A stretch of 64,000 bases of DNA, from positions 8,424-72,423 of the forward strand of contig JBAYFP010000003.1 of NCBI GenBank assembly GCA_041667145.1, read 5' to 3'. This document shows positions 13,915 to 39,926 of this stretch, piece by piece. This stretch comes from Minisyncoccota bacterium. GTDB taxonomy: Bacteria; Patescibacteriota; Minisyncoccia; Phycocordibacterales; UBA9973. The position numbers and the translations under genes were made by a program. Every line of letters begins with the position of its first letter. Position 1 is the stretch's first letter. The notes under the pieces are model-generated. The model searched no databases. It saw only the letters and a list, made by a program, of their open reading frames with translations, and was not told where the DNA came from.

Positions 13915-13926
13915 ATTTTTTTATAA

Positions 13927-14385: not shown

Positions 14386-14412
14386 AATTTTATTTTTTGT
14401 ATTAATTAATAA

Positions 14413-14901: not shown

Positions 14902-14933
14902 TTAGCTATAAATTTTAAATTATTTTTAATAAA

Positions 14934-15007
14934 TCTCACTTCGGACCTTCACCCCGCCATCGGCGAGGGTTTGTGTTCCGACTATAAGGCCGGAACAAAT
15001 GAGACTC
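14934..15007. repeat. Intergenic GC-rich palindromic element (imperfect inverted ends tctcacttcggacc / ggccggaacaaatgagactc around a GC-rich centre).
   Basis: Read directly. Located between rpsF and tatD. Confidence 0.5.
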
Positions 15008-15029
15008 AAATATACTAGCAATATTAAAC

Positions 15030-15965: not shown

Positions 15966-15974
15966 GTTATTTAT

Positions 15975-16583: not shown

Positions 16584-16601
16584 AATAAATTAGTTAATAT
16601 T

Positions 16602-19152: not shown

Positions 19153-20421
19153 CTAAAATTTCAATACCTTAGAAAATTTTGTTTTATCTTTAAATGGCCC
19201 AATAAGAGCTAAGTTGAGTTTATCATCTTTAAATATATTTTTAGCTAAAATCTGTATTTCTAACGCTGTAACTTTCCTAATCTCGTCTGATTTTTGTTCT
19301 ATCTCCTTTATTTCACGCTTTAAAAGTTCTTGCATCCCATAAAAGCTAGCAATATCATCACTGGACTCTAAAGAGAGCTTCATATTACCTATCAAAAATT
19401 CTTTTACTTTATTTAATTCTTCTTTAGAAATTTTTTGTTCCTTTAATTTTTTACACTCCTCTAAAACTGCTTCTATGACCTCATAAATCCTCTTATTATC
19501 CACCCCCGCCGAAACTTGGAAAAAACCATGATCTGTATAAGCATCGTTATATGCACGTACATAATATCCGACACCCATTTCTTCGCGTAATTTCTGGAAA
19601 AGTCTTGAACTCATTCCTCCACCTAGGACTCCCGCCAATACGGAAAGTACTGCATTTTTCTTATAAAATAAATCATAACTTCGTAAACCTAAAACAAAGT
19701 GTGTCTGATCTGTTTTTTTAAATTTTACCAAAATTCCTGGCTTTGTCTGAGTTTCTTTTACTTTTAATTTTAAAGATTTTTTACCATGTGAAATTTTACC
19801 AAAAATTTTTGTCACTTCTTTCGATACCTCACGCTCATTCACCTTCCCTGCCACTACTATAGTCGTCGCCTCCGGTAAATAATGCGCTTTTTTATAATTT
19901 ATAAAATCACTACGCTTCATATTTAAAATATTTTTTTTATCTCCTGCTATGTTCCACCCTGCTGGTTGGTCACCATACAAAAGCTCCATTATCAAATCTT
20001 GAACATGCCTATTTGGCATATCTTCATACATATTTATCTCTTCGACAATGACACCCTTTTCTTTCTGCATTTCTACTTCTGGGAAAGTTGAATTCAAATA
20101 AATATCTGAGACAACATCAAAAATTTGTCTGAAATGCCTAGCATCTGATTTAGCATAATATCCTGTATATTCCTGCGCTGTGAAAGCATTATATTGGGAA
20201 CCTAAAGCATCTAATTCCTTTGAAATATCTATGGCCTTAGGTCTTTTGATAGTCCCTTTGAAACACATATGTTCTAAAAAGTGTGAAATGCCATTAATTT
20301 CTTTCCTTTCGTATTTAGACCCTGCTTCTACCAATACCAAAACAGTCACCGTCGGGTTATCTTTCATTGGAACAGTAATCACTCGCAAACCATTATGTAG
20401 AATTTTCTTAGAAAACTTCAT
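19153..20421 (-). CDS. M16-family zinc peptidase (pitrilysin/insulinase-like).
   Basis: 422 aa. Inverted zinc motif HFLEHMCFKGT (HxxEH). Confidence 0.85.
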   Translation of the reverse strand: MKFSKKILHNGLRVITVPMKDNPTVTVLVLVEAGSKYERKEINGISHFLEHMCFKGTIKRPKAIDISKELDALGSQYNAFTAQEYTGYYAKSDARHFRQIFDVVSDIYLNSTFPEVEMQKEKGVIVEEINMYEDMPNRHVQDLIMELLYGDQPAGWNIAGDKKNILNMKRSDFINYKKAHYLPEATTIVVAGKVNEREVSKEVTKIFGKISHGKKSLKLKVKETQTKPGILVKFKKTDQTHFVLGLRSYDLFYKKNAVLSVLAGVLGGGMSSRLFQKLREEMGVGYYVRAYNDAYTDHGFFQVSAGVDNKRIYEVIEAVLEECKKLKEQKISKEELNKVKEFLIGNMKLSLESSDDIASFYGMQELLKREIKEIEQKSDEIRKVTALEIQILAKNIFKDDKLNLALIGPFKDKTKFSKVLKF

Positions 20422-20432
20422 TTAAATTTTAA

Positions 20433-21647
20433 TTATATTTTATCCTCTATATATTTTTTTAATCCAGAAACTTTTACCCTCTCCTGCTCTCCTCCATCCC
20501 TATCTCTCACAGTCACTGCATCATCAGTCAATGTATCAAAATCCACCACTATACAGAATGGTGTTCCTATCTCATCTTGTCTTCTATATCGTTTACCTAT
20601 GTTGCCATTATCATCCCACATCACTCTACCAAATTCTGCTTTAAGCGGTGCAAAAACTTTTGTATTTGCATATTCTACGAGTTCCGGTTTATTTTTAAGT
20701 AGAGGAGATACAGCACAAATAACTGGCGCTATACTAGGCTTAAACTTTAAATATGATCTTACTTCTCCATCTTTTTCTTCCTCCATATATGCTGAGACAA
20801 GTAAAGACAAAAGAGCTCGATCGACTCCTATCGATGGTTCTATGACATGTGGTGTCATTTTTTCTGCAAGATCTTCATCTATATATTCTAGTTTATGATT
20901 TTTTAAATCAAAATCTGTTCTATAAGCTAAACCAAGAAGTTCTTTTTTACCAAAAGGAAAATCAAATTCAAAATCAATCGTTCTCTCTGAATAATGAGCC
21001 CTATCTTGACCTCCCACTTCAAGTTCATGGACTTTCGTCATATCGACTCCAATCTCTTCAAGCCAATCGATCATCTCCCCTCTCCAATATTCAAAATACT
21101 TTTCCCAATCAGTCGAACGAACAAAATACTCTATCTCCATTTGTTCAAATTCACGAACTCGAAAAATGAAATCTCTCGGCGCTATCTCATTTCTAAATGC
21201 TTTGCCTATTTGTGCCATTCCAAAAGGAAGTTTTGGATGAAAAGCATCTACTGTATTTTTAAAATTAACAAACATTCCTTGAGCTGTCTCTGGTCGAAGA
21301 TATGAAACAGCCGCTTCTTCTCCTGCTCCCACCTGTGTCTTAAACATCACATTAAATTGTTTACCGTCCTCCGTCGGATCTGAAAAACCTGCCACGTGCC
21401 CAGAAGCTTCCCATGCTTTTGCATTCATCAAAATAGCCGCATCGAGCCCATACATATCTCGCCTACTATCTACAAATTTCTTCCACCAACTCTGCTTGAT
21501 ATTATTTTTTAAAGCTACTCCAAAATGACCATAGTCAAACGTCCCAGCTAGGCCTCCATATATCTCCGAGCCTTGAAATATAAAACCTCGTCTCTTGCAA
21601 AGTGAAACTATCTTTTCCATTAAATCATTATCTTTTTTTTCTTGCAT
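20433..21647 (-). CDS. glyQS: Glycyl-tRNA synthetase, alpha2 dimeric type (compact).
   Basis: 404 aa. N-terminus MEKIVSLCKRRGFIFQGSEIYGGLAGTFDYGHFGVALKNNIKQSWW matches glyQS-type GlyRS. Confidence 0.85.
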   Translation of the reverse strand: MQEKKDNDLMEKIVSLCKRRGFIFQGSEIYGGLAGTFDYGHFGVALKNNIKQSWWKKFVDSRRDMYGLDAAILMNAKAWEASGHVAGFSDPTEDGKQFNVMFKTQVGAGEEAAVSYLRPETAQGMFVNFKNTVDAFHPKLPFGMAQIGKAFRNEIAPRDFIFRVREFEQMEIEYFVRSTDWEKYFEYWRGEMIDWLEEIGVDMTKVHELEVGGQDRAHYSERTIDFEFDFPFGKKELLGLAYRTDFDLKNHKLEYIDEDLAEKMTPHVIEPSIGVDRALLSLLVSAYMEEEKDGEVRSYLKFKPSIAPVICAVSPLLKNKPELVEYANTKVFAPLKAEFGRVMWDDNGNIGKRYRRQDEIGTPFCIVVDFDTLTDDAVTVRDRDGGEQERVKVSGLKKYIEDKI

Positions 21648-21670
21648 TTTTTTATCTTTATTTTATTAAA

Positions 21671-23602
21671 CTATTCAACTACCCTACTACCATTAAATGT
21701 AAAACCTGGATCATTCAAAAGGCGAGTACTCAATGATGCTTTATTGACTCTCACATCTACATTAGCAAAATCATCATGCCCGGTCAAAGTCGTATCATTA
21801 ATGATTGTCGGCTCTGTACCAACTTGAGAAAGTGAAGGCGTCAATTCTACTTGGAAAGAAATCTCTCTCCCCTCTTCAGTAATACCTGTACCCTTTGGTA
21901 TCCCTCCAACATTCCAAACTATTTCTTTTGTAGAAGCATTATAGGTCAAATCTTCAGTAGCAGGAATAAAAGGCCCAACAAATCTTACCCATGGTGGAAG
22001 AGTCGAGCGTACCTGCGTATTAGAAATATTATTTGCCGTATTAGAAAGAGACCAAACTACCGTATAAGTCGTTTTTTGTTCTACCTTAGGAGGAATCGGC
22101 CCACTATTTGTAAAAGCTCCAGAATAAAAAAGTGCCTTACTAGAAAGACCAACATCAGAAATAATTCTTATCACCTTCGATTCAGTACTACTCAAATCAG
22201 TAGTGACACCAGCACTCTGTGATTGCTCTCCTGTCACAGAGACATCTATATTTATGGTCGGTGAAGAAACGATACCACTCGAAGCCGAAAAGAGCGAGAG
22301 AGGAGAGAAGGAAAAAGAAACTGCCCCAGAATCTCCTGGATCTACTGAAGTAAATTTACTTTGTGAATTCTTATCCCAAACTATTACATCCTGTGTCGAA
22401 TCATAAAAACCCTGCCCCACTGATATAGTTTTACGATTTATTGAATTACCAGAAATTTTTGCACGAATAGATAAATTATTTATCTTTGTTTCTAGGTTAT
22501 TTGTCCATTGTATTTGTCCTTGAATAGAAGTCTTAGTATCTATGGCATATTCTCTCTGATATACACCATTTATAAGTAGCCTTGCATCAATCGAAGACTT
22601 TTTTACTAAAACGATGTGTTCTAGAGAATTAAAAACAACAGCGATTAAGGATTTATCTGTCGGCGACTGCGAACCACTCCAGACACGAAATACTTTTTCC
22701 TCTCCATCAAATACGTCAACCATTTTGCCTAAAATAGAGATACTGCGTTCTGCCCCTGGAGACAAATCTCCCAAGTTCCAAATATTATTACCCAAGGATG
22801 GCGAGGGTGTTGATTTCACAAATTGGAAACCAATGGGGTAATCAACCTTGAGAAGCATCTTTGAAACCGATTTCGTCGCGTTAAGTGTCGCTTTCACATT
22901 GAGAGTGATGTCTTGATTAGAACTCACTTCCGTAGGTGCATCAACAGAAAGATTGATAGGTGTAGAACTTATAGAAATATCAAATAATTTATCTTTCACA
23001 AAAATAGCATTTGAACCTTCAACTCTATACTCAATAGAAACTTTTATCTGGCGAGTACTTCCCTGTTCTCCAAACAGTATAAATTTCACATTCTCATTTT
23101 TTATTCCCCCAGCTGGAATCGTCCCTAACGATATACGCAAGTGCTCATTGTCTTGTGACAAACTAGCCTGTGAACTTTTCGGATATTCCACCAAAAGGTC
23201 GACAAGTTGTAATGGAGAGCTATTTCTATTTACCACTTCTAACAAAAGAGGATATTCTTCTCCCCCAGCGGTGAAAGCATTACTCAATATAGAAATATCA
23301 ATATTGTCATTGGAAACGCTATTACTATTACCAAAAAACATATAAGCTGCATAGCCAATAGATAATACAAAAAAGATTATCGAAAATATAAAGAATTTTT
23401 TAAACATAGATGTCTTCATAAAAAACTTCTCTCTCAAATCAGACCTGACTTCTTCTTTCTTCTGCCAAGAATCCATCACCTCTCTTTTTTGGAAATGCGG
23501 AAAACTATCACGATGCTCTATTTTTACTTGATAGTCTTTACTAAAAAGCTTACTTTTTAATTCTTCTATCTTATTTAATTTATCTCCATCTTGAAGCGAC
23601 AT
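21671..23602 (-). CDS. Hypothetical large membrane-anchored extracytoplasmic protein.
   Basis: 643 aa. One TM segment near residue 80 (FFIFSIIFFVLSIGYAAYMFF), followed by a beta-rich domain. No recognised motif. Confidence 0.45.
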   Translation of the reverse strand: MSLQDGDKLNKIEELKSKLFSKDYQVKIEHRDSFPHFQKREVMDSWQKKEEVRSDLREKFFMKTSMFKKFFIFSIIFFVLSIGYAAYMFFGNSNSVSNDNIDISILSNAFTAGGEEYPLLLEVVNRNSSPLQLVDLLVEYPKSSQASLSQDNEHLRISLGTIPAGGIKNENVKFILFGEQGSTRQIKVSIEYRVEGSNAIFVKDKLFDISISSTPINLSVDAPTEVSSNQDITLNVKATLNATKSVSKMLLKVDYPIGFQFVKSTPSPSLGNNIWNLGDLSPGAERSISILGKMVDVFDGEEKVFRVWSGSQSPTDKSLIAVVFNSLEHIVLVKKSSIDARLLINGVYQREYAIDTKTSIQGQIQWTNNLETKINNLSIRAKISGNSINRKTISVGQGFYDSTQDVIVWDKNSQSKFTSVDPGDSGAVSFSFSPLSLFSASSGIVSSPTINIDVSVTGEQSQSAGVTTDLSSTESKVIRIISDVGLSSKALFYSGAFTNSGPIPPKVEQKTTYTVVWSLSNTANNISNTQVRSTLPPWVRFVGPFIPATEDLTYNASTKEIVWNVGGIPKGTGITEEGREISFQVELTPSLSQVGTEPTIINDTTLTGHDDFANVDVRVNKASLSTRLLNDPGFTFNGSRVVE

Positions 23603-23657
23603 TTATTAATTATACCACCCCGAACAAGATTTAGAAATCTCTTAAGGGACAGGTATT

Positions 23658-24236
23658 CTACAAGTGTGTCTCTTTAAGAGCTTTATTTATTTGATATAAT
23701 ATTTTAGTTCTATTTTCTGATGCTTTAAATACTAAATCTTCCTCAAATGGTGACCTAATAAAATCTTTCAAAACCTCATTTCCTCCTATATATCCTAGAT
23801 TATTTAAAATACGTAAAACGATAATAACCTCAATATTTCGCAATTCATCTTTAGTTTCAGATTTTTCTAAAATAAATAATCCATTCAATAAATCATTAAA
23901 TAAAACTTCGTTTGGGTCTTCTCCGGCAAGTAAACGTTTCAAAAGTTTAGAAATATTTACAAAAACTTTAAAAACTTCTGGGTTAGATAAATTCTCCAGT
24001 TTATTTGTTTTAGCTACATTTGTAATTCGCCAAAAATCTTTCCCTTTTACTAAATCAATCTTGAGATATGCAAAGTCTTGCAAAACGAAACGCAACTTCG
24101 AGGATATTTTTCTCACACCCTGCGCGCTTGCATATATCATTCCTAAGTCACGGGTAAAAATGGAGTAATACTTCCCCGTCTCTCCAAAGTGCCCACTTCC
24201 TAATATTATTCCTTCTGTGTGGTGTATATGATGCAT
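23658..24236 (-). CDS. recO: DNA repair protein RecO (short form).
   Basis: 192 aa. N-terminal OB-like EGIILGSGHFGETGKYYSIFTRDLGMIYASAQGVRK matches the RecO N-terminus. Linkage to glyQS is conserved in many bacteria. Confidence 0.6.
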   Translation of the reverse strand: MHHIHHTEGIILGSGHFGETGKYYSIFTRDLGMIYASAQGVRKISSKLRFVLQDFAYLKIDLVKGKDFWRITNVAKTNKLENLSNPEVFKVFVNISKLLKRLLAGEDPNEVLFNDLLNGLFILEKSETKDELRNIEVIIVLRILNNLGYIGGNEVLKDFIRSPFEEDLVFKASENRTKILYQINKALKETHL

Positions 24237-24874
24237 TAGAATTCTTCTTCTTTATTTTCTTCAAAATTTTTAAAAATTATATTATGTTCTTTTAAAACCA
24301 AAGATGGCATCTCATGATTAGCTCCAAAAGAAATAAGCATCCCATCATGAATTGGAAAACAAATTTTAGGTTTTACATCTAGGGCATAGCTGATTGAATC
24401 TTTTACATTCGCCCATGGACCAGCCACAGGTAAAGCCAAAATTTCAACAGGTTTATTTGGATTATAAAAAGCATCTCCTGGATAAAATAATCTTTTACCT
24501 ATAAAATATGCAGTATTTTGTACTATAAAAATGTCCCCAAAAATTTCTTCATGTTTACAATCATGTGCTTCTATCTCTACACCAAAAAAATCTTTCGGAT
24601 CTTTATACTTTAAGATTTCATACTTAATACCAACTCCATCCAACAACTTTCCGACCCCTTCATTTGTAATTATTTTAATATTGGGATTATTTTTTATAAT
24701 TTCCTTTAAAGACTCAATATGTATGTGATCCCTGTGTTCATGAGTGATAATTATTAAATCAATATTAAATTCCTTCTCCTGCTCTCCAACAGTCCAAGAA
24801 CCTGGATCAGTCATAATCCTTTTTCCATTTTCCTCTATAACTAAACAACAATGTCCAAGTTTTTTGATTTTCAC
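24236..24874 (-). CDS. MBL-fold metallo-hydrolase.
   Basis: 212 aa. HEHRDHIH (HxHxDH) motif. Confidence 0.75.
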   Translation of the reverse strand: MKIKKLGHCCLVIEENGKRIMTDPGSWTVGEQEKEFNIDLIIITHEHRDHIHIESLKEIIKNNPNIKIITNEGVGKLLDGVGIKYEILKYKDPKDFFGVEIEAHDCKHEEIFGDIFIVQNTAYFIGKRLFYPGDAFYNPNKPVEILALPVAGPWANVKDSISYALDVKPKICFPIHDGMLISFGANHEMPSLVLKEHNIIFKNFEENKEEEF

Positions 24875-24881
24875 AAAATTT

Positions 24882-25292
24882 TTAACCTCTCGTTTTATTA
24901 AAAATTTCTATACCATCTAAAATCCACTCAGCACGTAAATTTGTAAATTTCTTTAATTCGTCCAAGGAAAACCAACCGGCATTCATTATCTCATCTGCAG
25001 GTATTTTTAATTCTCCACCTATAATTTCGGCATAAAATAAATGTGCTACCGGTCTGGTAATATCTTTATGAAATATTCCAATCTCTTTAATAAGAGAAAC
25101 ATCAAAACCGGATTCTTCTTTCGCTTCCTTAACTGCCGTCTGTTCTATATTGTCTCCTTTGTCAACCTTCCCCGCTGGCCAATTCCAAAGACCTTTTTTG
25201 GGACCCCTACCCTCTTGGACAAGTAAAAATTTGTTATCTTTAAATAATAAAACCCCAGCAACAACTTCAATTTTTTCAGTTTCTTTTTCCAT
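24882..25292 (-). CDS. NUDIX hydrolase.
   Basis: 136 aa. Nudix box GKVDKGDNIEQTAVKEAKEESG. Confidence 0.8.
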   Translation of the reverse strand: MEKETEKIEVVAGVLLFKDNKFLLVQEGRGPKKGLWNWPAGKVDKGDNIEQTAVKEAKEESGFDVSLIKEIGIFHKDITRPVAHLFYAEIIGGELKIPADEIMNAGWFSLDELKKFTNLRAEWILDGIEIFNKTRG

Positions 25293-25312
25293 CTCTAAAT
25301 TATACTACATTT

Positions 25313-28300
25313 TTACTTTTCAATCTTTACTTTAAACAGCAAAGTGTCAATTTTAATCTCCTCCCCATTATTTTCCTCAAATTTTATCTTTGAAGCTAGG
25401 ATTATTTTCAACAAATCTTCTTCAAATTTTTGAATTAATTTTTTACCCTCGTCATTGGTCTCAACAGTGAGAGAAATAACATCACTAGGAGTGAGCCCCA
25501 TCTTCTTGCGCATGTCTTGTATTGCTCGCACAAATTCTCGATAATCTCCTTCTTGTTTTAACTCTCCTGTGATATTCATATCAAGCAATACTTCAACTTC
25601 AAGATTCTTATTTTCTTTTACTTCTTTCACATTAAGCTCATCCTTAATTAATTCAATATATTCACCACCTAAATTACAATCCTTCACTTCAAGTGAAGCT
25701 AAAGGCTGGCGAACTTTTAATCCTGCCTTTTGTCGAGCCTCGAGGCCTAAAGTCACGATCTTTCTGACAGTTTCCATATGTTCCAGTACCCCCTCCTTCT
25801 TCCTCCCCCTATATAGGGGGAGGCTAGGTAGGGGTATAAATCCAAATATCTTTGAAACCTTTACCTCTGGCCACTCTGTTAAATGCACACTTTCTTCATC
25901 TTCTTCGCTCCTTAATTTCAACCAAATATCTTCCGCAGTAAATGGTACAAACGGCGCCATTATTTTTGTAAGAGTTTTTAATACAAAATACAAAGTTATC
26001 TTTGCTTTTTCAGCATCACCAATCTCCAAATCTATAGCTCCTTTTATTCTTTCCCTTGAACGACGTAAGTACCAAGTAGAGAGGTCACCAATAAAATCAC
26101 GAATAGCCCTAGTTGGTTCAAGTAATTTATAGTCATCAAGGTGTTTAGTAACAAGATCTATCAACTCATCCAATTTAGCTAAAATCCATTGATCTAAAAT
26201 ATCATCTGATTTTCTAGGTCCTAAAATTTCTAAATGAGGATCTCTATATAACTCATAAAATGCTAAAACATTATACAATAATCCAAAAACCTGACGATGA
26301 AGTTCGAGTACTGTTTTTTCATCAAAATTCTTTGATTCACCCGGCTGATTTACAGAATACATCCAAAGACGCAATGTATCTGCCCCATATTTATCCATTG
26401 CTTCCCATGGGTCAACAATATTACCAAGAGACTTCGACATCTTCTTACCTTTTGCATCAAGTAAATGTCCTAAACAAATAACATTCTTAAAAGCTTTACC
26501 ACGACCCATCAATACACCAATAGCATGTAAAGTATAAAACCATCCACGAGTCTGATCTATGGCTTCAGAAATAAAATCAGCAGGATATCCAGGACCATCA
26601 ACCCATTCTTTATTTTCAAAAGGATAATGATCTTGTGAAAAAGGCATAGTTCCAGAATCTAGCCAAACATCCATAACTTCTTTTGTGCGTATTAAATTTC
26701 CACCACATTTACAAACAAGTTCTACTTCATCGATAAAAGGCCTATGTAAATCAAGTTCATAATTTTCATTATGAGGAAGCGGGACAAAATCAAAATTTTT
26801 AATTTGTGCGTTAGCCAAATCACTATCTTTATCGCATAATGTTTCTTCTTTATTTAAACCTTTCACCATTGAAAATAGCGCCCAAGCAGTATCTTCATGT
26901 GTCACAATCAAAATATTTTTATTTTCATATTTTTGATCCACTTCATAAATAAATTTACCTACCCTTTTTTTTACATCAAGTAAAGCCTCTCCTTTTGGAC
27001 AAGCTCCGTCATATCTTTCTAATTTGTGCTCTATAAAATAATCATCAATGTCTTTCATCGAACTAGAAGCAAAAATACCATCATTTATTTCCACTAATCG
27101 TGAATCATTTTTTATATCTTTTACTTGGAAATTTATTCCTTCAGCAACAATCTTCGCTGTTTCTTGTGTACGTAAAAAAGGTGAAGCAAAAATCAAATCA
27201 ATTTTCTTATCTATTAAAAGTTTGACAGCTTCTTTAACCTGTTTATTACCTTTTTCAGTAAGATGATGAGTATTATTTGGGTTACTTGAAACTACATTAA
27301 GAGCATTATTTTCGGCCTCTCCGTGCCTCATCACGAAATATTTATTGCCAGATTTTTTTGTCTTTTCTTTTATTTCTTCTACACCCCCAATCACATCAAT
27401 CTTTTTACATGAATCACAAATCCAAACTGGAAGCGGGGTCCCCCAATAACGTTCACGAGATATAGCCCAATCTTTTATATCTTTAAGCCATTCACCAAAA
27501 CGCCCATCACGTATATGTGAAGGTTCCCAATTTATATCTTTATTTTCCTCAATCATTTTGTTCTTAATTTTCGGATCAGACATTCTGATATACCAAGAAT
27601 CACGGGCATAATAAATAAGTGCAGTATGGCAACGCCAACAGTGAGGATAAGAGTGCTCATATTTTTCTTTTTTTAACAAAAGATTTTTATGGGCAAGATC
27701 TTTTATAATATCAACAGCGACTTCTTCATCTCTAACAAATCTATCTTCTAAAAATTCAGTTCCCTTTAAAAATTTACCATCAAGACCAACAAGGTGATGT
27801 TTTGGTAGCCCAATTTCATTGCCTAATACAAAGTCATCCTGACCATACATCACTGCGGTGTGCACTACACCTGTTCCATCTTCAGTTGTCACAAAATCTG
27901 CGTTGTAAACTTTATAAGCCTTTTCTAATTTTGGTTTTTCACTTTCAGAAATTGTATTTTGCAAAAATGGATAAAGTGATTCATATTGTAAACCAATTAA
28001 ATCTTTACCTTTTATTTCATCATGAATAATCTCAATATTCTGACCTTCAAAAACATTTTTTATTCTATCTTTTGCAAGAATGTAAAGTCCAGAAACACCA
28101 ACGACTCTTAATGCCACATAAGAAATATCTTTCCCCACGGCTAAAGCGACATTCCCTGGAAGTGTCCACGGTGTTGTGGTCCAAGCCAAGATATAAGCAC
28201 TCTCTTTTATTATCATACCCTTCCCAAAAGATTGACCGGGCTTGAGGTGAAATTTTACTGTTACTGACAAATCTTTTACATTTTCATACCCTTGGGCTAA

Positions 28301-28879
28301 TTCATGAGAAGACAAACCTGTACCACATCTAGGACACCATGGTACAACTTTATAATCCTTGTAGAGTAAATTTTGCTCATTAACTTTCTTCAAAATACTC
28401 CATACAGACTCCATGTAAGTATTATGATATGTGACATATGCATTTTCTTGATCAACAAAGTAGCCCATTCTCTCAGTAAATTTACTCCAATCATCCGTAT
28501 ACTGCCAGACACTTTCTTTACACTGTTGGTTGAATTTTACAATTCCATATTTTTCAATTGCAATTTTTGAATCTAAATTTAATTTTTTTTCTACTTGAAG
28601 TTCTACTGGTAATCCATGAGTATCCCACCCACCTTTACGACGCACATGAAAACCCTGCATAGTCTTATATCTAGGAATAGCATCTTTAAATGCCCTAGCC
28701 TCTAAGTGATGAATACCTGGTTTGCCATTAGCAGTAGGAGGTCCTTCGTAAAAAATAAATTCTTTCTTCCCTTCTGTTTGAGTTAGAGATTTTTGAAAAG
28801 TTTTATTTTCTTTCCAAAACTCTAAAATACGCTCTTCTCTAAGTGCTGTTTCTGATTTTACGTTTTTTTCTTTTTCCAT
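25313..28879 (-). CDS. ileS: Isoleucyl-tRNA synthetase carrying an internal histidine-phosphatase (PGAM-like) domain.
   Basis: HIGH motif present as PGIHHLE. KMSKS motif present as KMSKSLGN. The likely start is the ATG at 28879, because the T-box terminator U-run lies between 28879 and the TTG at 28912 used by the ORF track. About 190 aa containing FVMRHGE, SPFLRTQETA and ILIVTHED are inserted between WICDSC and DLHRPFIDE. Confidence 0.9.
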   Translation of the reverse strand: MEKEKNVKSETALREERILEFWKENKTFQKSLTQTEGKKEFIFYEGPPTANGKPGIHHLEARAFKDAIPRYKTMQGFHVRRKGGWDTHGLPVELQVEKKLNLDSKIAIEKYGIVKFNQQCKESVWQYTDDWSKFTERMGYFVDQENAYVTYHNTYMESVWSILKKVNEQNLLYKDYKVVPWCPRCGTGLSSHELAQGYENVKDLSVTVKFHLKPGQSFGKGMIIKESAYILAWTTTPWTLPGNVALAVGKDISYVALRVVGVSGLYILAKDRIKNVFEGQNIEIIHDEIKGKDLIGLQYESLYPFLQNTISESEKPKLEKAYKVYNADFVTTEDGTGVVHTAVMYGQDDFVLGNEIGLPKHHLVGLDGKFLKGTEFLEDRFVRDEEVAVDIIKDLAHKNLLLKKEKYEHSYPHCWRCHTALIYYARDSWYIRMSDPKIKNKMIEENKDINWEPSHIRDGRFGEWLKDIKDWAISRERYWGTPLPVWICDSCKKIDVIGGVEEIKEKTKKSGNKYFVMRHGEAENNALNVVSSNPNNTHHLTEKGNKQVKEAVKLLIDKKIDLIFASPFLRTQETAKIVAEGINFQVKDIKNDSRLVEINDGIFASSSMKDIDDYFIEHKLERYDGACPKGEALLDVKKRVGKFIYEVDQKYENKNILIVTHEDTAWALFSMVKGLNKEETLCDKDSDLANAQIKNFDFVPLPHNENYELDLHRPFIDEVELVCKCGGNLIRTKEVMDVWLDSGTMPFSQDHYPFENKEWVDGPGYPADFISEAIDQTRGWFYTLHAIGVLMGRGKAFKNVICLGHLLDAKGKKMSKSLGNIVDPWEAMDKYGADTLRLWMYSVNQPGESKNFDEKTVLELHRQVFGLLYNVLAFYELYRDPHLEILGPRKSDDILDQWILAKLDELIDLVTKHLDDYKLLEPTRAIRDFIGDLSTWYLRRSRERIKGAIDLEIGDAEKAKITLYFVLKTLTKIMAPFVPFTAEDIWLKLRSEEDEESVHLTEWPEVKVSKIFGFIPLPSLPLYRGRKKEGVLEHMETVRKIVTLGLEARQKAGLKVRQPLASLEVKDCNLGGEYIELIKDELNVKEVKENKNLEVEVLLDMNITGELKQEGDYREFVRAIQDMRKKMGLTPSDVISLTVETNDEGKKLIQKFEEDLLKIILASKIKFEENNGEEIKIDTLLFKVKIEK
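25789..25843. repeat. P-family nested GC-rich palindrome inserted in-frame in ileS (ccccctccttcttcctccccctatatagggggaggctaggtaggggtataaatcc).
   Basis: Inner palindrome cctccccct-atat-agggggagg and outer palindrome cccctcc...ggtagggg. Translates on the minus strand as GFIPLPSLPLYRGRKKEG. About 85% identical to 39592..39645. Confidence 0.8.
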
Positions 28880-29075
28880 ATATAAATTAAAAAACTCGTC
28901 CACGTACAACAATTAATAATTGCTATACAAGGACGAGTTTCTTCTCGTGGTACCACCTTGGTTACTTCTCATTACCGCTATAACGGGCTTACCCGTCGGG
29001 TTCTACTTAATTTCCTCCCGAAGCTCAGAGGTGATAACCTCCTCAATGCCTATAAATAAAGTATAGCATAAAATT
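28880..29075 (-). promoter_or_regulatory. T-box riboswitch leader upstream of ileS (putative Ile specifier; terminator/antiterminator).
   Basis: The minus strand reads AACCAAGGTGGTACCACGAG, which matches the T-box consensus AGGGUGGNACCGCG at 12 of 14 positions. A downstream helix CTCGTCC...GGACGAG plus UUUUUU ends 12 nt before the ATG. An upstream hairpin GAGG-AGGTTATCA-CCTC contains AUC. Confidence 0.65.
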
Positions 29076-29084
29076 TAAATTTTT

Positions 29085-30833
29085 CTACACCACCTCTTGC
29101 TGATAACATTTCTCACAATAGATCAAAAAGTTCTCTGATAGATCAAAAACAGTCTCCATATCTTTTTTACATTTTCCACATACTGCTCTATATTTCTTAC
29201 CTTCTTTAACGAAAGAAAGTCTATTTTCTATTCGTAATAACGGATGTGTATCTGGAAGAGGTAAATTCATTCTTCGATAAAACTCAAGCTCAGAACTAGC
29301 TACTCTAAAGGGCCTCCCACTTTTCACGCAAAGTATCGCTTTATTTAAAATATCATCTGGTATTTCTTGAATAGTTTTAGGTAAATCAGAGTATTTTACA
29401 ACCTCAATATTACCGACATTTGTTTCTGGCTCTTTCGCAATATAACCACCAAGCTTCAATATCTCTTCATCACTAAGTGGAAAAGAAATCTGGGCTAAAG
29501 AAAAATTATAGGCTTGGGCTGAAAATTCTAAGCCCAATCCATCTCCATATTCTCCCCTATTAAGCATGTCAGTTTTTATCTCATCAACTATTCTAAAATA
29601 TTCCTCTTCAGAATATTGTTTATTTAAAACACAATAAGATTTATTCTGAAGTCCAAAACACATGAAACAATTATTTAAGTTTTTTGAATTAAAAATAAAT
29701 TCACAATCTGTACAAAATTTTGATGACACAGAAAATTTCACCCTACTAGACTGTGAACCGACATTAATATTCATATAAACCTGACTTGAATTACCGCCAG
29801 AGAAAAGAAAGTCCATAGAATCTTTATGAGACATGGCTCCGTCTCCATGTCTAACGTTTTCAGAATTATTCGCATCTATCACATCATACAAATTTCTCGA
29901 ATTCTTTATATTCACACCAAAAACATTACTAGAAGCGACATTTCTAGATCCGTTTATTGGGAGTCTTTTAACTAACTCCCAAAATTTTTCTTGGTAACTT
30001 AATATTTTATCTAAAGTAAGTGGGTAAACTGTATTTAAAAAATTTTCATATTCATCTTTAGAGTATTGTTCATTAAAAACACAATACTTAGCATTACGTA
30101 AATTCACACAGCCAAAACAATTCATACAATTCCGACAATCAAATAATAACATGCTATCTGCGCAACTATTTGAGAAATAAATAAAAGAAGATTTATATAG
30201 ATGATCTGAAAATAAAGCCTCGTAAACAAATTCTGAATCAGTGACTACTTTAGAATCCATTATGTTTCTACTCTTCATTAACATATTTGAATACCATGCA
30301 TCTTCGACATCATAACAAGCCATAACATAATACCCATTCTTTAAATTACGTCCTCCATTTGAATAATCACTATTTACAGAAGATGGATCACGATTTAAAA
30401 AAGACGGCATTGGAAATTTCTTGCGAATTGAAGACAAAACCCTCATCGGGTCGTCGCCTTCTTTATACTTAATTCCAAAAGAAAAAGGATCAAACTCTTC
30501 ACCAATAAAATATTGATAATCGTACACAGGGAATGGACACTCTTCCGGGAATATAGATATCATCATTTCACTATGTCCAGGTGCATCACATTCACGTTTA
30601 AAAAGGCGAGAAAAATTCATGTGTACAAGACGTCGCATTCTTCTACATGTAGGACAAAAATTCGGTGGCGGAACATTAAACATTTTTAAAAATTTAATAT
30701 CTCCTTCTTCAATTTCAAAATCCCCTTCACAATAGGGATGTAAGCCTGACCATTTACATGTTCGCCCATGAGGAATCAGAGAGTCTATTATTTCTTTTAT
30801 TGCACTATCAAATTTTGGCGTTTTATTTGTCAT
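29085..30833 (-). CDS. Hypothetical Cys-rich protein with tandem C-x2-C...N-C-x2-C-F-G-C...Y-C-V-x-N-x-Q-Y-S-x-[DE]-E-Y modules and terminal zinc-ribbon-like CxxC pairs.
   Basis: 582 aa. Two homologous about 60 aa modules (LLFDCRNCMNCFGCVNLRNAKYCVFNEQYSKDEY and FIFNSKNLNNCFMCFGLQNKSYCVLNKQYSEEEY). N-terminal CKWSGLHPYC...CPTC and C-terminal CGKCKK...CEKC. Lies in the argS-ileS operon. Confidence 0.5.
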   Translation of the reverse strand: MTNKTPKFDSAIKEIIDSLIPHGRTCKWSGLHPYCEGDFEIEEGDIKFLKMFNVPPPNFCPTCRRMRRLVHMNFSRLFKRECDAPGHSEMMISIFPEECPFPVYDYQYFIGEEFDPFSFGIKYKEGDDPMRVLSSIRKKFPMPSFLNRDPSSVNSDYSNGGRNLKNGYYVMACYDVEDAWYSNMLMKSRNIMDSKVVTDSEFVYEALFSDHLYKSSFIYFSNSCADSMLLFDCRNCMNCFGCVNLRNAKYCVFNEQYSKDEYENFLNTVYPLTLDKILSYQEKFWELVKRLPINGSRNVASSNVFGVNIKNSRNLYDVIDANNSENVRHGDGAMSHKDSMDFLFSGGNSSQVYMNINVGSQSSRVKFSVSSKFCTDCEFIFNSKNLNNCFMCFGLQNKSYCVLNKQYSEEEYFRIVDEIKTDMLNRGEYGDGLGLEFSAQAYNFSLAQISFPLSDEEILKLGGYIAKEPETNVGNIEVVKYSDLPKTIQEIPDDILNKAILCVKSGRPFRVASSELEFYRRMNLPLPDTHPLLRIENRLSFVKEGKKYRAVCGKCKKDMETVFDLSENFLIYCEKCYQQEVV

Positions 30834-30842
30834 TTTTTATTC

Positions 30843-32603
30843 TTACATCCTTTCTGGAGCTTTGATACCGAGAAGATACAAACCGTTTTTCATAACGAGA
30901 GAAAAGGCTAAGGTTAAAGCCACTCGATAGGATGATTCTTCATCATTTTTATCGATTATTTTTGTATTTCCATAATAAGTATTGAAAGCACGAGCAATTT
31001 CAATCAAATAATTTGCAATATGATGTGGTTCAAATTCCTTTGTGCTTCGTTCTACAATTTCAGGGAATCTATATAAAAGTTTTTCTACTTCGGATATACA
31101 AAGGTCGAACCTTAAAAACCCCGGCAAAATATTTTCTGCCTTTGCTTTTTCTAAAATAGAATTTGCTCGAGCATATGAATATTGTAAATATGGGCCAGAA
31201 TCCCCCTCAAAAGAAATAGACTTCTCAAAATCATAAACAATATCTCCTCCAATGTTTTGTTTCAAGATAGAATATTTAAGCGCGCTTACCCCCACATCTT
31301 TACTTATTTGTTTTTTCTCTTCTTCAGTAAAATCCCTATCTTTTATCTTCTCTGAAATTTCTGCACAAGATTCTCGAATTAATGATTCTCCAGTTATTAC
31401 ATTTCCTTTTCTAGAAGACATCTTCCCTGTCGAAAGGCGCATCATGCCATGAATAATATGCTTCATTTTATGAGCTATCTCAGGATTCATTATTTCAAGC
31501 GCTTTACTGACTACTTTCATATACTCTTCTTGTTCATGCGCAGTCACTACTACAGATAGATCTAAGTTTTTTTCCTTTTCAAATTTCATCTCCGTAAGTC
31601 CAAGCTCTTTCGTCTCATAAGTAGGCAATCCTTGAGAATTCACAAAAACTCGGGTATGAAGTTTTGGGTCATATTTTTCACCATGAAAAACTATTGCTCC
31701 ATCACTTTTTTCAAAAATTTTATTTTCTGAAACTATTTTTAGCCCAATAGGAGCCACGACACTTTCAAAGAAATAATAATTAAAGCTTGTGCCTAGTGTC
31801 TTATAGATCTCTTCAAACGCTTCGAGTGTAATTATTTTCCCCCAATCATAAATTTCATTTATTTTTTTATCACTCTTATCATAAACTTTTCTATTTATTT
31901 CATCAATTTCTTTTTTTGCCTGCTCATCAGCCTCATAGACATCATTTCCTTTTACATAAAGCTCTCCGATATATTGCGCTTTTTCTGTCACAGATTTATT
32001 TTCATCTGGCATTCCAAACTTCAAAAGTCCATAAATTGCTTTTGCCACATGTGGGCCCACATCACCTTGATAATTTGCACGAATCGTTTTAGCCCCAGAA
32101 AACTCTACGATACGAGAGATAGATTCACCTATAGCGTTACTCATCAAATGACCGATATGAAAAGGTTTAAAAGGGTTCGGTTGTGTATATTCCACCATTA
32201 ATTTTTTTCCTTCAAAAATATTGTTGTGTCCAAAATTTTTATTCTCTAAAACTTCTTTCACACTATCTACAAAAAAAGTCTTATTTAAATAAAAATTTAT
32301 AAAGCCAGCACCGGCAACCTGAATTTCGGAAATTAGACCCCCTCCAACCTCCCCCTTCGCAGGGGGAGAGCTTAAATCCCTTAATTCTTTGACTATCTTA
32401 TTTGCTAATTCTTTTGGGTTCGTTTTTAATTCCTTCGCTAAAGTCATAGCAACATTTGTAGAATAATCTCCCATCTTCAAATCTGCTGGATGCTCTAAAG
32501 AAATATCTTCAATTTCTATATTGAGATTTTTAAGAGCATTTTTTATTAAATTTTTTAAATTATGTTGCATTTTTTTATGTAATGTTCTGGTAAAGAATTT
32601 CAA
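30843..32603 (-). CDS. argS: Arginyl-tRNA synthetase.
   Basis: 586 aa. HIGH motif present as HIGH. DALR anticodon-binding C-terminus. Typical N-terminal Arg_tRNA_synt_N segment. Confidence 0.9.
   Translation of the reverse strand: MKFFTRTLHKKMQHNLKNLIKNALKNLNIEIEDISLEHPADLKMGDYSTNVAMTLAKELKTNPKELANKIVKELRDLSSPPAKGEVGGGLISEIQVAGAGFINFYLNKTFFVDSVKEVLENKNFGHNNIFEGKKLMVEYTQPNPFKPFHIGHLMSNAIGESISRIVEFSGAKTIRANYQGDVGPHVAKAIYGLLKFGMPDENKSVTEKAQYIGELYVKGNDVYEADEQAKKEIDEINRKVYDKSDKKINEIYDWGKIITLEAFEEIYKTLGTSFNYYFFESVVAPIGLKIVSENKIFEKSDGAIVFHGEKYDPKLHTRVFVNSQGLPTYETKELGLTEMKFEKEKNLDLSVVVTAHEQEEYMKVVSKALEIMNPEIAHKMKHIIHGMMRLSTGKMSSRKGNVITGESLIRESCAEISEKIKDRDFTEEEKKQISKDVGVSALKYSILKQNIGGDIVYDFEKSISFEGDSGPYLQYSYARANSILEKAKAENILPGFLRFDLCISEVEKLLYRFPEIVERSTKEFEPHHIANYLIEIARAFNTYYGNTKIIDKNDEESSYRVALTLAFSLVMKNGLYLLGIKAPERM
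32337..32380. repeat. P-family palindrome inserted in-frame in argS (ccccctccaacctcccccttcgcagggggagagcttaaatccc).
   Basis: Same 5' half and inner palindrome cctccccct-tcgc-agggggag as the ileS and rnhA copies. Translates as SSPPAKGEVGGG. Confidence 0.75.
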
Positions 32604-32670
32604 GAGTCGTGGGTCCCCTGCCCTTATGACTCCGAGGGCGAAGGCTCAGAAATTTTTTATCAGAACATTA
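32580..32670. repeat. E-family-like hairpin element: arms taatgttctggtaaagaatttc / gaaattttttatcagaacatta around GC-rich core aagagtcgtgggtcccctgcccttatgactccgagggcgaaggctcag.
   Basis: About 20 of 22 nt of the arms are complementary. The core shares tgggtcccctRccc with 11947..12026. Lies between the dut stop and the argS start. Confidence 0.55.
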
Positions 32671-32678
32671 TATATCAT

Positions 32679-33128
32679 TTATTTATGTCCTGTACTTCCT
32701 TCACGTCCATCACCACGGATAGTCTCTGAAAGTTCTCCTACTTCAAGAATATCACAATGTTCAAATTTTTGTATTAGCATTTGCGCAATTTTATGGCCTT
32801 TTTCTAGCACCACCTTTTTATCCCCAGTATTTAATAAATTCATTATTATCTCACCTCTATAACTAGAGTCTATGACCCCACCCATGATTTTAAGACCCAA
32901 ATTGAAGGAAATCCCTGATTTGTCCCAAATTAATCCTACATAGCCTTCCGGTATCTCTACAGCTATTCCAGTAGGCACACGTTCTTGTTTACCAGGTAAA
33001 AATACGACATCCTGCAAAGCATAAAAATCCATCCCTGCATCCCCTGGATGTCCATGTGTCGGTATTTTTGCATCCTTATTTAACTTTTTAACTTTGAATT
33101 GCATATTTATTTGATTTAACAAAATCAC
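32679..33128 (-). CDS. dut: dUTP diphosphatase (start possibly at the internal Met at 33104).
   Basis: GDAGMDF, GVIDSSYRGE and RG..GEGSTG motifs. Confidence 0.9.
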   Translation of the reverse strand: MILLNQINMQFKVKKLNKDAKIPTHGHPGDAGMDFYALQDVVFLPGKQERVPTGIAVEIPEGYVGLIWDKSGISFNLGLKIMGGVIDSSYRGEIIMNLLNTGDKKVVLEKGHKIAQMLIQKFEHCDILEVGELSETIRGDGREGSTGHK

Positions 33129-33818
33129 CTACTTGGTTAAAACCTTTTTAACTTCTTCATAAACTTTATTATGAATATTTTCACGTGTATCTAAAACACC
33201 ATTTTTTAAGCAATCTATTTTTACCCAATTTTTCTGTGTCTTCGCAAGCCATAAAGCACTTTTTATAGAATTCTTTTTAAAATTAAGATCCACTTCATGA
33301 ACATCTTTTTTATTCCCTGCATAAGCTCTAACTGCCTTTTTATTTCTCTCTTTTATTAATCTCTCGACTATATTGAGAGGTAAAGAAAGATAAACAGTAA
33401 TATCAGGTCTTGGAATTTTAAAAACTTTATACTCCATCTCATCTAACCATCTTAAAAAATCAGTTCTTTTTTTAACACTTTTAATCTTTCCTCCTTGGTG
33501 TATCTGATTTGCGCTTACATATCTATCAAGAATAACAATATACCCTTCATTTAAAAACCTCTTTATTTGTTCTGAAGATTCCCATCTATCAGCAGCATAA
33601 AGCACAGAAACGATCTTTGGGTGAACTTTCACAAAATTGTAATATTGCTCGGTCAGGCAGTGTCCAATAAAACCACCGAAAAAATTATTGTAATGTGGAA
33701 AATGTATAGTTTTAATTTTAAAACCTAATTTTTTTAATCTTTTAGCTAAAAGATTTATTTGAGTAGTTTTCCCACTACCATCCGTCGCGTCTATAACTAT
33801 AAGTTTACCTTTTGCCAT
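33129..33818 (-). CDS. tmk: Thymidylate kinase.
   Basis: 229 aa. P-loop IVIDATDGSGKTTQ. DRY motif DRYVSAN. Confidence 0.85.
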   Translation of the reverse strand: MAKGKLIVIDATDGSGKTTQINLLAKRLKKLGFKIKTIHFPHYNNFFGGFIGHCLTEQYYNFVKVHPKIVSVLYAADRWESSEQIKRFLNEGYIVILDRYVSANQIHQGGKIKSVKKRTDFLRWLDEMEYKVFKIPRPDITVYLSLPLNIVERLIKERNKKAVRAYAGNKKDVHEVDLNFKKNSIKSALWLAKTQKNWVKIDCLKNGVLDTRENIHNKVYEEVKKVLTK

Positions 33819-33857
33819 ATAGAAAATATAGCAGAAAAAAGATCAAAATGAAAATTA

Positions 33858-34664
33858 TTATGAATCAAATTCTTTTTTTCTGTATAAATTTGCAATATCT
33901 TCCTCTGTGCCATTTTTAAGTGTTATAGAAATCCATAAATCATAAGGTAAGTAACCAGTTTTCTTATTAATTGAATTAGCTGTACATTCTTTTACTAATT
34001 TCACTATTTTATGAATATCAATGAACTCTGGTACTTTAAATAATTGGTTCACTTCTATAAAAAGTTTTTTGCTTTCTGGAAATTTTTTCTCAAATTTTGA
34101 AAAATACTTCATATAGTGATCAGTTGGAAGTGAAATAGTTCCATATTTATTTACAACATTCCTTGTCCAAAGTTGGTGCCCAGCAAAAATTTCATGGAGT
34201 GCTTCACAAAAACCATCATATTTATCTGCCCAGTCTACCACCATAGATTCAAGAGAATTTTTATTCACTGCTTCATCAAGTAATATTTTATAAACATAAC
34301 CATCTACATTAGAAGGAAATCTTTTTACTAACTCTTTAACTGCTTCTTTCTCTAGGTCATCTAATTTATGAATTTGTTCTTCTGTCATTGTATCTTTATT
34401 CCCTGCTTGAATATCTCCTATAATCATTTCCGCATCATCATGGACCAAAGCTGAAATATAAGCTTTTTTTTCATCAAACTTATCTCCAAATACTTTTTTC
34501 ACCAGAGGAGAAATTTCTTTTACAATCCATGCTACTCTTCTTGAATGAATCCATAAATCAGTCCTATACCACATTACATCATATAAACTATATCTAGTTA
34601 TATTTCGTAAATTATCTTCACGACCAATAAATTTATCTAAATCATTAATAATAATTTCACTCAT
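33858..34664 (-). CDS. HD-domain phosphohydrolase (YfbR-like 5'-deoxynucleotidase-like).
   Basis: 268 aa. HSRRVAWIV...LVHDDAEMIIGD (H...HD...D). Confidence 0.6.
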   Translation of the reverse strand: MSEIIINDLDKFIGREDNLRNITRYSLYDVMWYRTDLWIHSRRVAWIVKEISPLVKKVFGDKFDEKKAYISALVHDDAEMIIGDIQAGNKDTMTEEQIHKLDDLEKEAVKELVKRFPSNVDGYVYKILLDEAVNKNSLESMVVDWADKYDGFCEALHEIFAGHQLWTRNVVNKYGTISLPTDHYMKYFSKFEKKFPESKKLFIEVNQLFKVPEFIDIHKIVKLVKECTANSINKKTGYLPYDLWISITLKNGTEEDIANLYRKKEFDS

Positions 34665-34667
34665 AAT

Positions 34668-37156: not shown

Positions 37157-37222
37157 ATTTTAATATTAACATGGAGAAATAAACATCTTCATATTAATTT
37201 CATTAAAATTGTGTCATAATTC

Positions 37223-39302: not shown

Positions 39303-39322
39303 CTAAAAATTTAAATAAAAAA

Positions 39323-39906: not shown

Positions 39907-39926
39907 AATTAATATATAATAATATT

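Follow-up and report, generated by a model that had tools for sequence, protein, structure and literature searches.

Can a class I aminoacyl-tRNA synthetase (aaRS) hold a second, complete enzyme within its catalytic body, and what would such an enzyme do there? This question is raised by ileS, the gene of isoleucyl-tRNA synthetase (IleRS), in a stretch of 64,000 nucleotides from contig JBAYFP010000003.1 of a Minisyncoccota bacterium, which we call the window. An original prediction, made from the letters of the window, had described an IleRS open reading frame (ORF) with an embedded histidine phosphatase and did not recognise this as a known feature of the enzyme; in good agreement with this, our literature searches found no description of a phosphatase within IleRS. 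It is rare for an aaRS core to house a new catalytic domain, and in the past such domains have gone along with new functions, the editing domain in connective peptide 1 (CP1) being the classic example. Here, we find that the window indeed encodes such a protein and that its architecture, the scope of which the prediction had under-estimated, is no single case and is conserved in hundreds of species.

The host gene is a single ORF on the reverse strand (Table 1), continuous over 1199 amino acids (aa) from a TTG codon at 28912 or over 1188 aa from an ATG codon at 28879. Homologues align from residue ~2-8 of the ATG-start product, and these alignments favour the ATG as the likely start. The product scores 856.9 bits against the NCBIfam equivalog model TIGR00392 (ileS; cut-off 621.4) in one uninterrupted frame, as expected from the prediction of an IleRS ORF with an embedded domain. 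Pfam recognises tRNA-synt_1 in two pieces, His_Phos_1, Anticodon_1 and DUF5915 (residues 1080-1199). The C-terminal organisation is that of a type-2 IleRS (IleRS2): a C-terminal zinc-binding domain is missing, and ARD2/ARD3 correspond to DUF5915. The protein matches the Thermus thermophilus (Tth) enzyme, 1ILE, over its full length (E=2e-231). An AlphaFold2 model of the whole protein reaches a mean predicted local distance difference test (pLDDT) score of 89.5 and a predicted template modelling score (pTM) of 0.81, with values of 81-95 in the insert and of ~90 in both linkers, and its top fold matches are the IleRS2 structures 8C8U and 1ILE with template modelling (TM) scores of 0.80 and 0.86, respectively. 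The sole internal stretch with pLDDT below 50 covers residues 1008-1021 of the 1188-aa protein (~25814..25855, reverse strand; part of KVSKIFGFIPLPSLPLYRGRKKEG). It represents an insertion of ~16 residues with respect to the Priestia megaterium IleRS2 (PmIleRS2), located between the anticodon-binding and C-terminal domains.

The class I signature reads GIHH, i.e. GXHH instead of HXGH; at its third position, 42 of the 65 insert-bearing orthologues carry G and the other 23 carry H. This swap is a functional IleRS2 variant that confers mupirocin hyper-resistance (Brkic et al., 10.1101/2023.01.31.526100). In the CP1 editing domain, residues W233, T234, T235, T236, P237 and T239 as well as G335, G337, H340, A342, G346 and D349 are invariant in 24 full-length insert-bearing IleRSs, and judged by these residues the editing site is intact. 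Both lysines of the KMSKS loop are invariant in all 65 full-length orthologues. The host is a type-2 IleRS that looks fully functional and would be expected to isoleucylate tRNA-Ile. A second ileS was not seen within the 64-kb window.

The embedded domain had been placed at 26843-27349 (residues 522-690) and described as a full histidine phosphatase. This is borne out by the Pfam search with the whole protein (Table 1) and, somewhat more strongly, by a search with the insert alone (E=3.7e-28, 99 bits). The motifs FVMRHGE, SPFLRTQETA, GEALLD and ILIVTHED, on which the prediction was built, are all present and translate as stated. When a profile of 18 inserts is compared with solved structures, PhoE/YhfR (1EBB, 1H2E; E=1e-29) come out best, followed by PspA (4IJ5; 3e-27) and CobC, while most solved phosphoglycerate mutases (dPGMs, the true mutases) align to the N-terminal half of the profile only. 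The AlphaFold2 model of the insert with its flanks has a pLDDT of 88.5 and a pTM of 0.85; taking this and the full-length model together, pLDDT across the insert is 81-98. Foldseek relates the model with flanks to PspA 4IJ6 and PhoE 1EBB, each with a TM score of 0.80 and a root mean square deviation of 2.3-2.4 A over ~190 columns. By sequence profile and predicted fold, the insert is a complete branch-1 histidine phosphatase domain of the PhoE/PspA type. The confident models and ordered linkers predict that the domain forms a separate and well-ordered lobe while the remainder is a normal IleRS2, such that the independent lobe considered in the original prediction is also what modelling suggests.

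A named subfamily can not be assigned. The insert stays below the curated cut-offs of every phosphatase subfamily tested, namely dPGM (NF038349 dPGM_arch, 76-79 bits against 225; TIGR01258 pgm_1, 35.6 against 81.7), PspA (62-66 against 350), the alpha-ribazole phosphatase CobC (68-72 against 162.9) and SixA (40-44.5 against 74.5). With respect to a role in defence, the phosphatase has no match among the PADLOC defence and antitoxin profiles.

Where in the synthetase does this domain reside? Aligned to 1ILE, the window protein falls into two blocks separated at Tth 482/488 (query 14-509 aligns to Tth 13-482, query 709-1006 to Tth 488-789); aligned to PmIleRS2, the break is between residues 474 and 480. 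The insert thus lies within the catalytic body, as predicted, and more precisely in the CP3 subdomain, where it stands in place of a loop of ~5 residues between the two Cys pairs of the second zinc knuckle. Its predicted location is correct; including the linkers, the full insert is slightly larger than had been assumed (Table 1). Likewise, the predicted spacing of about 230 residues between the WICDSC and DLHRPFIDE blocks, compared to 30 to 40 in a standard IleRS, holds in substance but is slightly high on both sides: from the second Cys of WICDSC to the D of DLHRPFIDE we count 218 residues in the window protein, ~24 in the T. thermophilus enzyme and ~21 in insert-less IleRSs of Patescibacteria.

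The phosphatase leads back to the synthetase via a characteristic C-terminal linker, P-L-P-H-N-x-x-Y-E, whose conserved positions are kept in most of the 65 orthologues (P 61, P 62, H 64, N 60, Y 57 and E 58) and which is missing both in insert-less IleRS and in free-standing phosphatases. The four Cys residues of the flanking zinc knuckle behave differently: each is kept in 33-34 of the 65 insert-bearing orthologues, and they are retained together in ~34. Since only about half of the orthologues keep them, zinc appears dispensable, either in the presence of the phosphatase or independently of it. CP3 connects CP2 with the second Rossmann-fold half and binds zinc in the T. thermophilus enzyme, TtIleRS (Chung et al. 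2020, PMC7191050). Its topology differs among the Ca, Tt and Sa enzymes (PMC7191050), which marks it as peripheral and plastic. Brkic et al. (10.1101/2023.01.31.526100) distinguish two CPs only, and in their nomenclature the insertion site belongs to CP2.

A single unusual gene in an uncultured organism may be an artefact, and the distribution of the architecture is therefore essential. We scanned one genome per GTDB species with a seed of five sequences taken from the 18-insert alignment, and at least 528 stretches encode a relative of the insert. Locus counts given here rest on the best 80 of these at least 528 stretches (91 loci in all were used for the neighbourhood scan). In all best 80 loci the domain is embedded in IleRS, and the alignment with the window protein continues through the insert, with identities of 41-66%. 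Almost all of them are labelled Patescibacteria or unclassified bacterium, with one labelled Spirochaetia (L028), and they include the complete genome RAAC4_OD1_1 (L059). The frame is single wherever the contig permits, with frame breaks in four loci (L008, L046, L051 and L065). At the protein level, a search with insert and flanks returned hundreds of proteins that combine tRNA-synt_1 and His_Phos_1 at 31-56% identity, labelled as Nomura-, Nealson-, Magasanik- and Colwellbacteria, Paceibacterota and similar. When the insert alone was searched exhaustively, 7254 matches had E<=1e-3; the stricter limits of E<=1e-10 and E<=1e-30 left 747 and 30, respectively. An exact-sequence look-up of the window protein gave no match. 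In view of these E-values and the recurrence in at least 80 independent genomes, chance is excluded.

Signs of a self-splicing or misassembled gene, which the original prediction had proposed to look for, were not found: there is no intein hallmark, no frameshift and no fusion error. In detail, an intein is rejected on the grounds that Pfam finds no Hint or endonuclease domain and that the boundary residues are not intein-like. The first residues of the insert (K, S, G or N) do not follow the N-terminal Cys/Ser pattern of inteins. In the C-terminal linker, the conserved H-N is followed by E, D, K, A or R and in no case by C, S or T. Nor is there a break in base composition along the insert. 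We also considered a split ileS, as many matches of ~750 aa start ~75 residues before the domain; we reject this reading and take the starts for gene-caller artefacts on truncated genes. Many database entries of ~700-760 aa (P0125, P0139, P0155, P0224, P0235 and others) begin at an internal Met, and the start they share is the conserved internal Met of the motif W[YF]I.MS.LR. Several contigs end near the same point of ileS (loci L010, L012, L013 and L072).

The catalytic residues of the insert are highly conserved. The R-H-R-E-H set is invariant in all 65 full-length orthologues. In a larger collection of 189 embedded copies, the R and H of the RHG motif are found in 188, the second Arg in 189 and the second His in 186 copies; the acid residue is E in 184 and D in 3. 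At the same time, the insert core has a mean pairwise identity of 0.44, compared to 0.50-0.59 for the catalytic and editing domains of the host and 0.375 for its C-terminal domain, and the length from anchor to anchor across the insert is fixed at 212-234 residues. Distances of insert and host are correlated (Mantel r=0.45), a value reached in none of 999 permutations. With both the catalytic set and the editing motifs invariant, the two enzymes look functional, and selection on the phosphatase appears to act on its chemistry and not on its fold alone.

A second line of evidence comes from lineages in which the two enzymes are separate. The closest free-standing relatives are ~186-197 aa long and ~40-45% identical to the insert. 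All seven that we examined (P0098, P0070, P0086, P0088, P0091, P0117 and P0109) are located directly upstream of an insert-less ileS of 931-981 aa, either with a gap of 1-14 nt or with an overlap of 4 nt. Six of the seven show the order argS-phosphatase-ileS-recO; in the seventh, from a metagenome-assembled genome (MAG) of Staskawiczbacteria, there is no argS nearby and the phosphatase still abuts ileS. Three further candidates for free-standing phosphatases, P0063, P0067 and P0103, turned out to be fragments of insert-bearing ileS. Of the 80 insert-bearing loci, 47 have argS upstream in the same orientation, often abutting ileS, and 59 have recO downstream. None of the 91 loci scanned contains another phosphatase ORF within ~6 kb, and the inserted and free-standing forms thus look mutually exclusive within the cluster. 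They differ in charge: inserted domains have a median isoelectric point (pI) of 6.3 and a net charge of -2 (n=183), complete free-standing forms of 8.9 and +3 (n=69), with a Mann-Whitney p of ~1e-6 for samples that are not phylogenetically independent. A basic free-standing form would fit docking on an acidic partner or on RNA, and in this respect the contrast cuts both ways.

The domain also occurs in extra copies and with a few other partners. Of the domain-bearing proteins of at least 260 aa, 142 out of 145 have flanks of IleRS or of class Ia synthetases. One IleRS (P0162) has its second copy in the variable loop that separates HYPFxN from PADFI, and in three others (P0204, P0217 and P0251) the copy in CP3 is accompanied by one where the anticodon-binding domain begins. 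Six assemblies contain the two-site form of P0217, and their contigs include two of 0.44 and 1.06 Mb. P0157 (1161 aa) is a valyl-tRNA synthetase (ValRS) with four copies, as assigned by valS models (381-411 bits, compared to 199 for ileS). One of these copies follows the SPQWFI motif, the others follow the ValRS equivalent of the CP3 site, and the three near-complete ones keep the full catalytic set. A C-terminal phosphatase is attached to a complete arginyl-tRNA synthetase (ArgRS) in P0230 (689 aa) and to TsaC/Sua5, an enzyme of the threonylcarbamoyladenosine (t6A) pathway, in P0062 (387 aa; L091 977..2140), where the domain is closest to the IleRS inserts. Finally, P0186 (1066 aa, on an 11-kb JGI contig) is an IleRS that combines the insert (676-860) with a GNAT domain (935-1063). 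This protein also contains, as a single observation, an in-frame IS200-like Y1 transposase domain (340-461) in the region of the editing domain. R-H-R-E-H is intact in 21 out of 21 copies of the multi-copy proteins, and the copies within one protein are highly divergent, which shows that they are not assembly repeats.

In a neighbour-joining (NJ) tree of the host part only (779 columns, 82 sequences), the seven insert-less IleRSs occupy at least three positions among the insert-bearing ones, and a clean split between both groups appears in none of 100 bootstraps. The free-standing phosphatases are 0.45 identical among themselves, compared to 0.37 to the inserts, and this holds even where their partner IleRS is nearest to insert-bearing hosts (the L082 host is 64% identical to L038 and L049). 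Host tree and phosphatase likeness together suggest that the state, inserted or adjacent, has changed more than once, or that ileS has been exchanged, while the pairing was kept. An NJ tree of 295 phosphatase domains does not cleanly separate inserted from free-standing forms and was not used to derive the direction of events. The nearest host relatives of the window protein fall into two groups: relative to L050, L059 and L020 the window host is 0.74 identical and the insert 0.42, and relative to L003 and L002 the host is 0.72-0.73 and the insert 0.59. This suggests, at the level of pairwise identities, that the insert evolves unevenly or was exchanged between lineages.

Implementing all facts, we hold it probable that the insert is an autonomous phosphatase lobe in the CP3 loop and belongs to a clade that acts as a dedicated partner of adenylate-forming tRNA enzymes, chiefly IleRS. 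This reading builds on the demonstrated identity of the host, insertion site, fold and catalytic residues, on purifying selection and wide inheritance, and on the two-gene form and the extra copies. By homology, His530 would serve as nucleophile and form a phospho-histidine intermediate, with the phosphoryl group bound by Arg529, Arg581 and His672 and the leaving group protonated by Glu608. Patescibacteria of the Parcubacteria type keep the phosphatase either inside ileS or as a gene abutting it; some lineages have gained further intact copies in other IleRS loops, besides the single cases of ValRS, ArgRS and TsaC. Pyrophosphate (PPi), AMP or another nucleotide from the synthetic site would then be hydrolysed locally, pulling or protecting aminoacylation.

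As to the substrate, we tentatively rank such a by-product, PPi or AMP/nucleotide, first. By established enzymology, IleRS, ValRS, ArgRS and TsaC share the use of ATP with release of PPi, while AMP and tRNA are shared by some of them only. The nearest folds of the insert in Foldseek are all small-molecule phosphatases. Within branch 1, Det1 and YOR283w are able to cleave the gamma-phosphate off ATP and the terminal phosphate off DNA (PMC2737285). It is the common release of PPi, together with this branch-1 chemistry and the small-molecule folds, that puts the by-product model ahead, possible as it is rather than likely. The next candidate, by analogy with the hydrolases that undo toxSAS modification, would be tRNA whose 3' end is blocked by a phosphate or pyrophosphate, for which we see a small chance at most. 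A more far-reaching proposal is that charging by IleRS, and sometimes by ValRS or ArgRS, depends in much of the Patescibacteria on accessory phosphoryl hydrolysis by a dedicated histidine phosphatase. This hydrolysis might clear PPi or AMP from the active site, or it might free the 3' end of the tRNA from a phosphate that blocks it. We consider such a dependence unlikely; if true, it would be a previously unrecognised catalytic component of the aminoacylation machinery, encoded by a neighbouring gene or nested in the synthetase itself.

Several points weigh against this explanation as a whole. Both the enzymatic activity of the domain and its service to the synthetase are inferred. We know of no branch-1 histidine phosphatase that is coupled to an aaRS and has hydrolysis of PPi or AMP as its physiological role, and a usable literature statement on genomes of the candidate phyla radiation (CPR) lacking inorganic pyrophosphatase was not found. 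Tight gene order in streamlined genomes can persist without functional coupling. The ValRS, ArgRS and TsaC cases each come from one cluster at 50% identity and from short contigs (up to 3.9 kb for P0157), the GNAT case P0186 likewise comes from one cluster and short contigs, and the phylogenies of host and insert, which are NJ-based only, are incongruent.

Among the alternatives, the one that survives best is that genome streamlining has fused an unrelated housekeeping phosphomonoesterase, e.g., for phosphoserine or sugar phosphates, into ileS, next to which it chanced to lie among the translation genes, with both activities working on their own and no mechanistic coupling of the two. Its closest characterized relatives, PhoE, PspA, CobC and GpgP, are indeed metabolic small-molecule phosphatases, the order argS-ileS-recO is strongly syntenic in these small genomes regardless of function, and the free-standing forms indicate that covalent attachment is not required. 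However, a fusion of neighbours would be terminal, and here the domain sits in internal surface loops, at three sites of IleRS and in ValRS as well. Where the insert is missing, the gene abuts ileS in seven out of seven cases, even without argS, and the pairing persists although the state appears to have changed more than once. Multidomain carriers are, moreover, class Ia synthetases in nearly all cases. We therefore regard an uncoupled fusion as rather unlikely.

It was further considered that the phosphatase conditions the tRNA 3' end, i.e. that it strips a 3'- or 2'-phosphate or a pyrophosphate from the CCA end and restores a chargeable end. The blocking groups would be left by nucleases or added by toxSAS-type toxins. 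Such toxins pyrophosphorylate the CCA end and block aminoacylation, which dedicated hydrolases reverse (10.1101/2021.04.30.441581), and removal of a terminal phosphate from nucleic acid is within the reach of branch-1 histidine phosphatases (PMC2737285). IleRS, ValRS and ArgRS all bind tRNA 3' ends, and the tendency of the free-standing forms to be basic would suit an RNA substrate. On the other hand, TsaC is a fusion partner, too, and does not handle the tRNA 3' end; the inserted domains are mildly acidic, their nearest folds are small-molecule enzymes with a cap subdomain, and no defence or antitoxin profile matches. There is also no evident reason why mainly tRNA-Ile should need repair. Taken together, 3'-end conditioning seems improbable to us.

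Even less likely is a non-catalytic module, in which the fold was recruited as a structural, tRNA-binding or metabolite-sensing (allosteric) element. Insertions in aaRSs often bind RNA, and the INS subdomain of IleRS2 contacts the D-loop (10.64898/2026.02.03.703510); in our model, the insert is rigidly connected. But pseudoenzymes normally lose their catalytic residues, and here all five persist in the orthologues and in the multi-copy proteins at 40-60% divergence, while the neighbouring zinc ligands decay. We give this alternative very little credence. An assembly chimera, frameshift-joined genes, an intein or a mobile insertion can practically be dismissed: the organism is uncultured, MAG assemblies can be chimeric and a few relatives show frame breaks (L008, L046, L051, L065), but the same in-frame architecture stands in 80 out of 80 independent loci and in hundreds of protein clusters, with non-intein boundaries, no Hint, intein or endonuclease domain and no compositional break.

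The positions of all features in the window are given in Table 1. The gene order around ileS is tmk, dut, argS, an ORF of 582 aa, ileS with the insert, NUDIX, MBL-fold and recO, followed by a DUF11-like gene, a class II aaRS and a peptidase M16. The 582-aa ORF (29085..30833, reverse strand), located between argS and ileS, is Cys-rich with many CxxC pairs. It fills the slot held elsewhere by the free-standing phosphatase and has no Pfam or PADLOC match; homologues of ~31% identity occur in the same cluster of other genomes, upstream of argS in L095/L096 and also in L068. The NUDIX hydrolase gene (24882..25292, reverse strand) lies 20 nt downstream of ileS and has a weak match to the PADLOC candidate model PDC-S07 (E=1e-13). 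Insert-less lineages (L084, L085, L087, L089 and L090) also have NUDIX genes where the cluster ends. A search of the window (1..64000) found no tRNA genes and no Rfam families at the gathering threshold, which might have pointed to a role tied to tRNA.

Table 1. Features of ileS, its inserted phosphatase domain and the surrounding cluster, in window positions; residue numbers refer to the 1199-aa frame.
Feature	Position	Strand	Remark
ileS, type-2 IleRS with internal phosphatase domain	25313..28912	-	single ORF; stop codon 25313-25315
Class I signature motif, GIHH (GXHH) instead of HXGH	28706..28717	-	translation verified
Threonine-rich motif WTTTPW of the CP1 editing domain	28166..28183	-	translation verified
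WICDSC, first CxxC of the CP3 zinc knuckle, upstream of the insert	27407..27424	-	corresponds to Tth C461/C464
Insertion of 200 aa, residues 520-719, phosphatase and linkers	26756..27355	-	from alignment breaks
Pfam His_Phos_1 (PF00300), residues 526-690	26843..27337	-	E=8.2e-27, 94.6 bits, cut-off 21.7
RHG motif, Arg529 and nucleophile His530	27320..27328	-	
Arg581 of SPFLR, second Arg of the phosphate pocket	27170..27172	-	
Glu608 of RLVEINDG, general acid/base	27089..27091	-	
His672 of IVTHED, second catalytic His	26897..26899	-	
C-terminal linker P-L-P-H-N-x-x-Y-E, back to IleRS motif DLHRPFID	26756..26782	-	
CKCGG, second Cys pair of the CP3 zinc knuckle, following the insert	26699..26713	-	corresponds to Tth C502/C504
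KMSKS catalytic loop motif	26429..26443	-	coordinates verified
argS, upstream cluster member	30843..32603	-	Pfam Arg_tRNA_synt_N, tRNA-synt_1d, DALR_1
recO-like gene, downstream cluster member	23658..24236	-	Pfam RecO_N, RecO_C

From a biological point of view, the pairing of both enzymes across a large radiation of uncultured bacteria with reduced genomes suggests a functional requirement that links phosphate hydrolysis and tRNA charging, and it bears on the physiology of translation in the Patescibacteria, which resist cultivation. It also has practical consequences. The genes are labelled inconsistently in databases, as IleRS, as 'histidine phosphatase family protein' or as 'class I tRNA ligase family protein', which matters for annotation. 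For protein engineering, CP3 and two other loops are sites that tolerate the insertion of whole domains.

Among known systems, the closest to the host are the IleRS2 enzymes of T. thermophilus (1ILE) and P. megaterium (8C8U/8C8V), which share the class I core, CP1 editing, KMSKS, anticodon-binding and DUF5915 regions at TM scores of 0.80-0.86; in CP3, however, they have ~5 residues between Tth 482 and 488 where the window protein has an enzyme domain of 200 aa. The insert, in turn, resembles PhoE/YhfR (1EBB, 1H2E) and PspA (4IJ5/4IJ6) in fold, in the five catalytic residues, in size and in its small cap, but these are free-standing metabolic enzymes with no tie to tRNA synthetases. A precedent for an IleRS with an extra enzymatic domain, an N-acetyltransferase, is the family NF040702 (ileS_w_GNAT), against which the window protein scores 313 bits at a cut-off of 1999, and it has no acetyltransferase match in Pfam; the added chemistry is another one. 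Small alarmone hydrolases restore aminoacylation competence by removing phosphates from tRNA 3' ends and provide a functional model for 3'-end conditioning; they are of the unrelated HD/RSH fold, are not attached to synthetases and show no detected homology to the insert. As an analogy, the CCA-adding enzyme of E. coli unites work on the tRNA 3' end with an HD-domain phosphatase/phosphodiesterase in the same polypeptide, but there the fold is metal-dependent, the fusion terminal and the host enzyme another one. Recent IleRS surveys, one of them covering 96,219 sequences with domain annotation, make no mention of the insert or of Patescibacteria. Synthetases with accessory domains as such are known already; what sets the present system apart is the nested position of the phosphatase, the scale at which it occurs, its two-gene form and its multi-copy variants.

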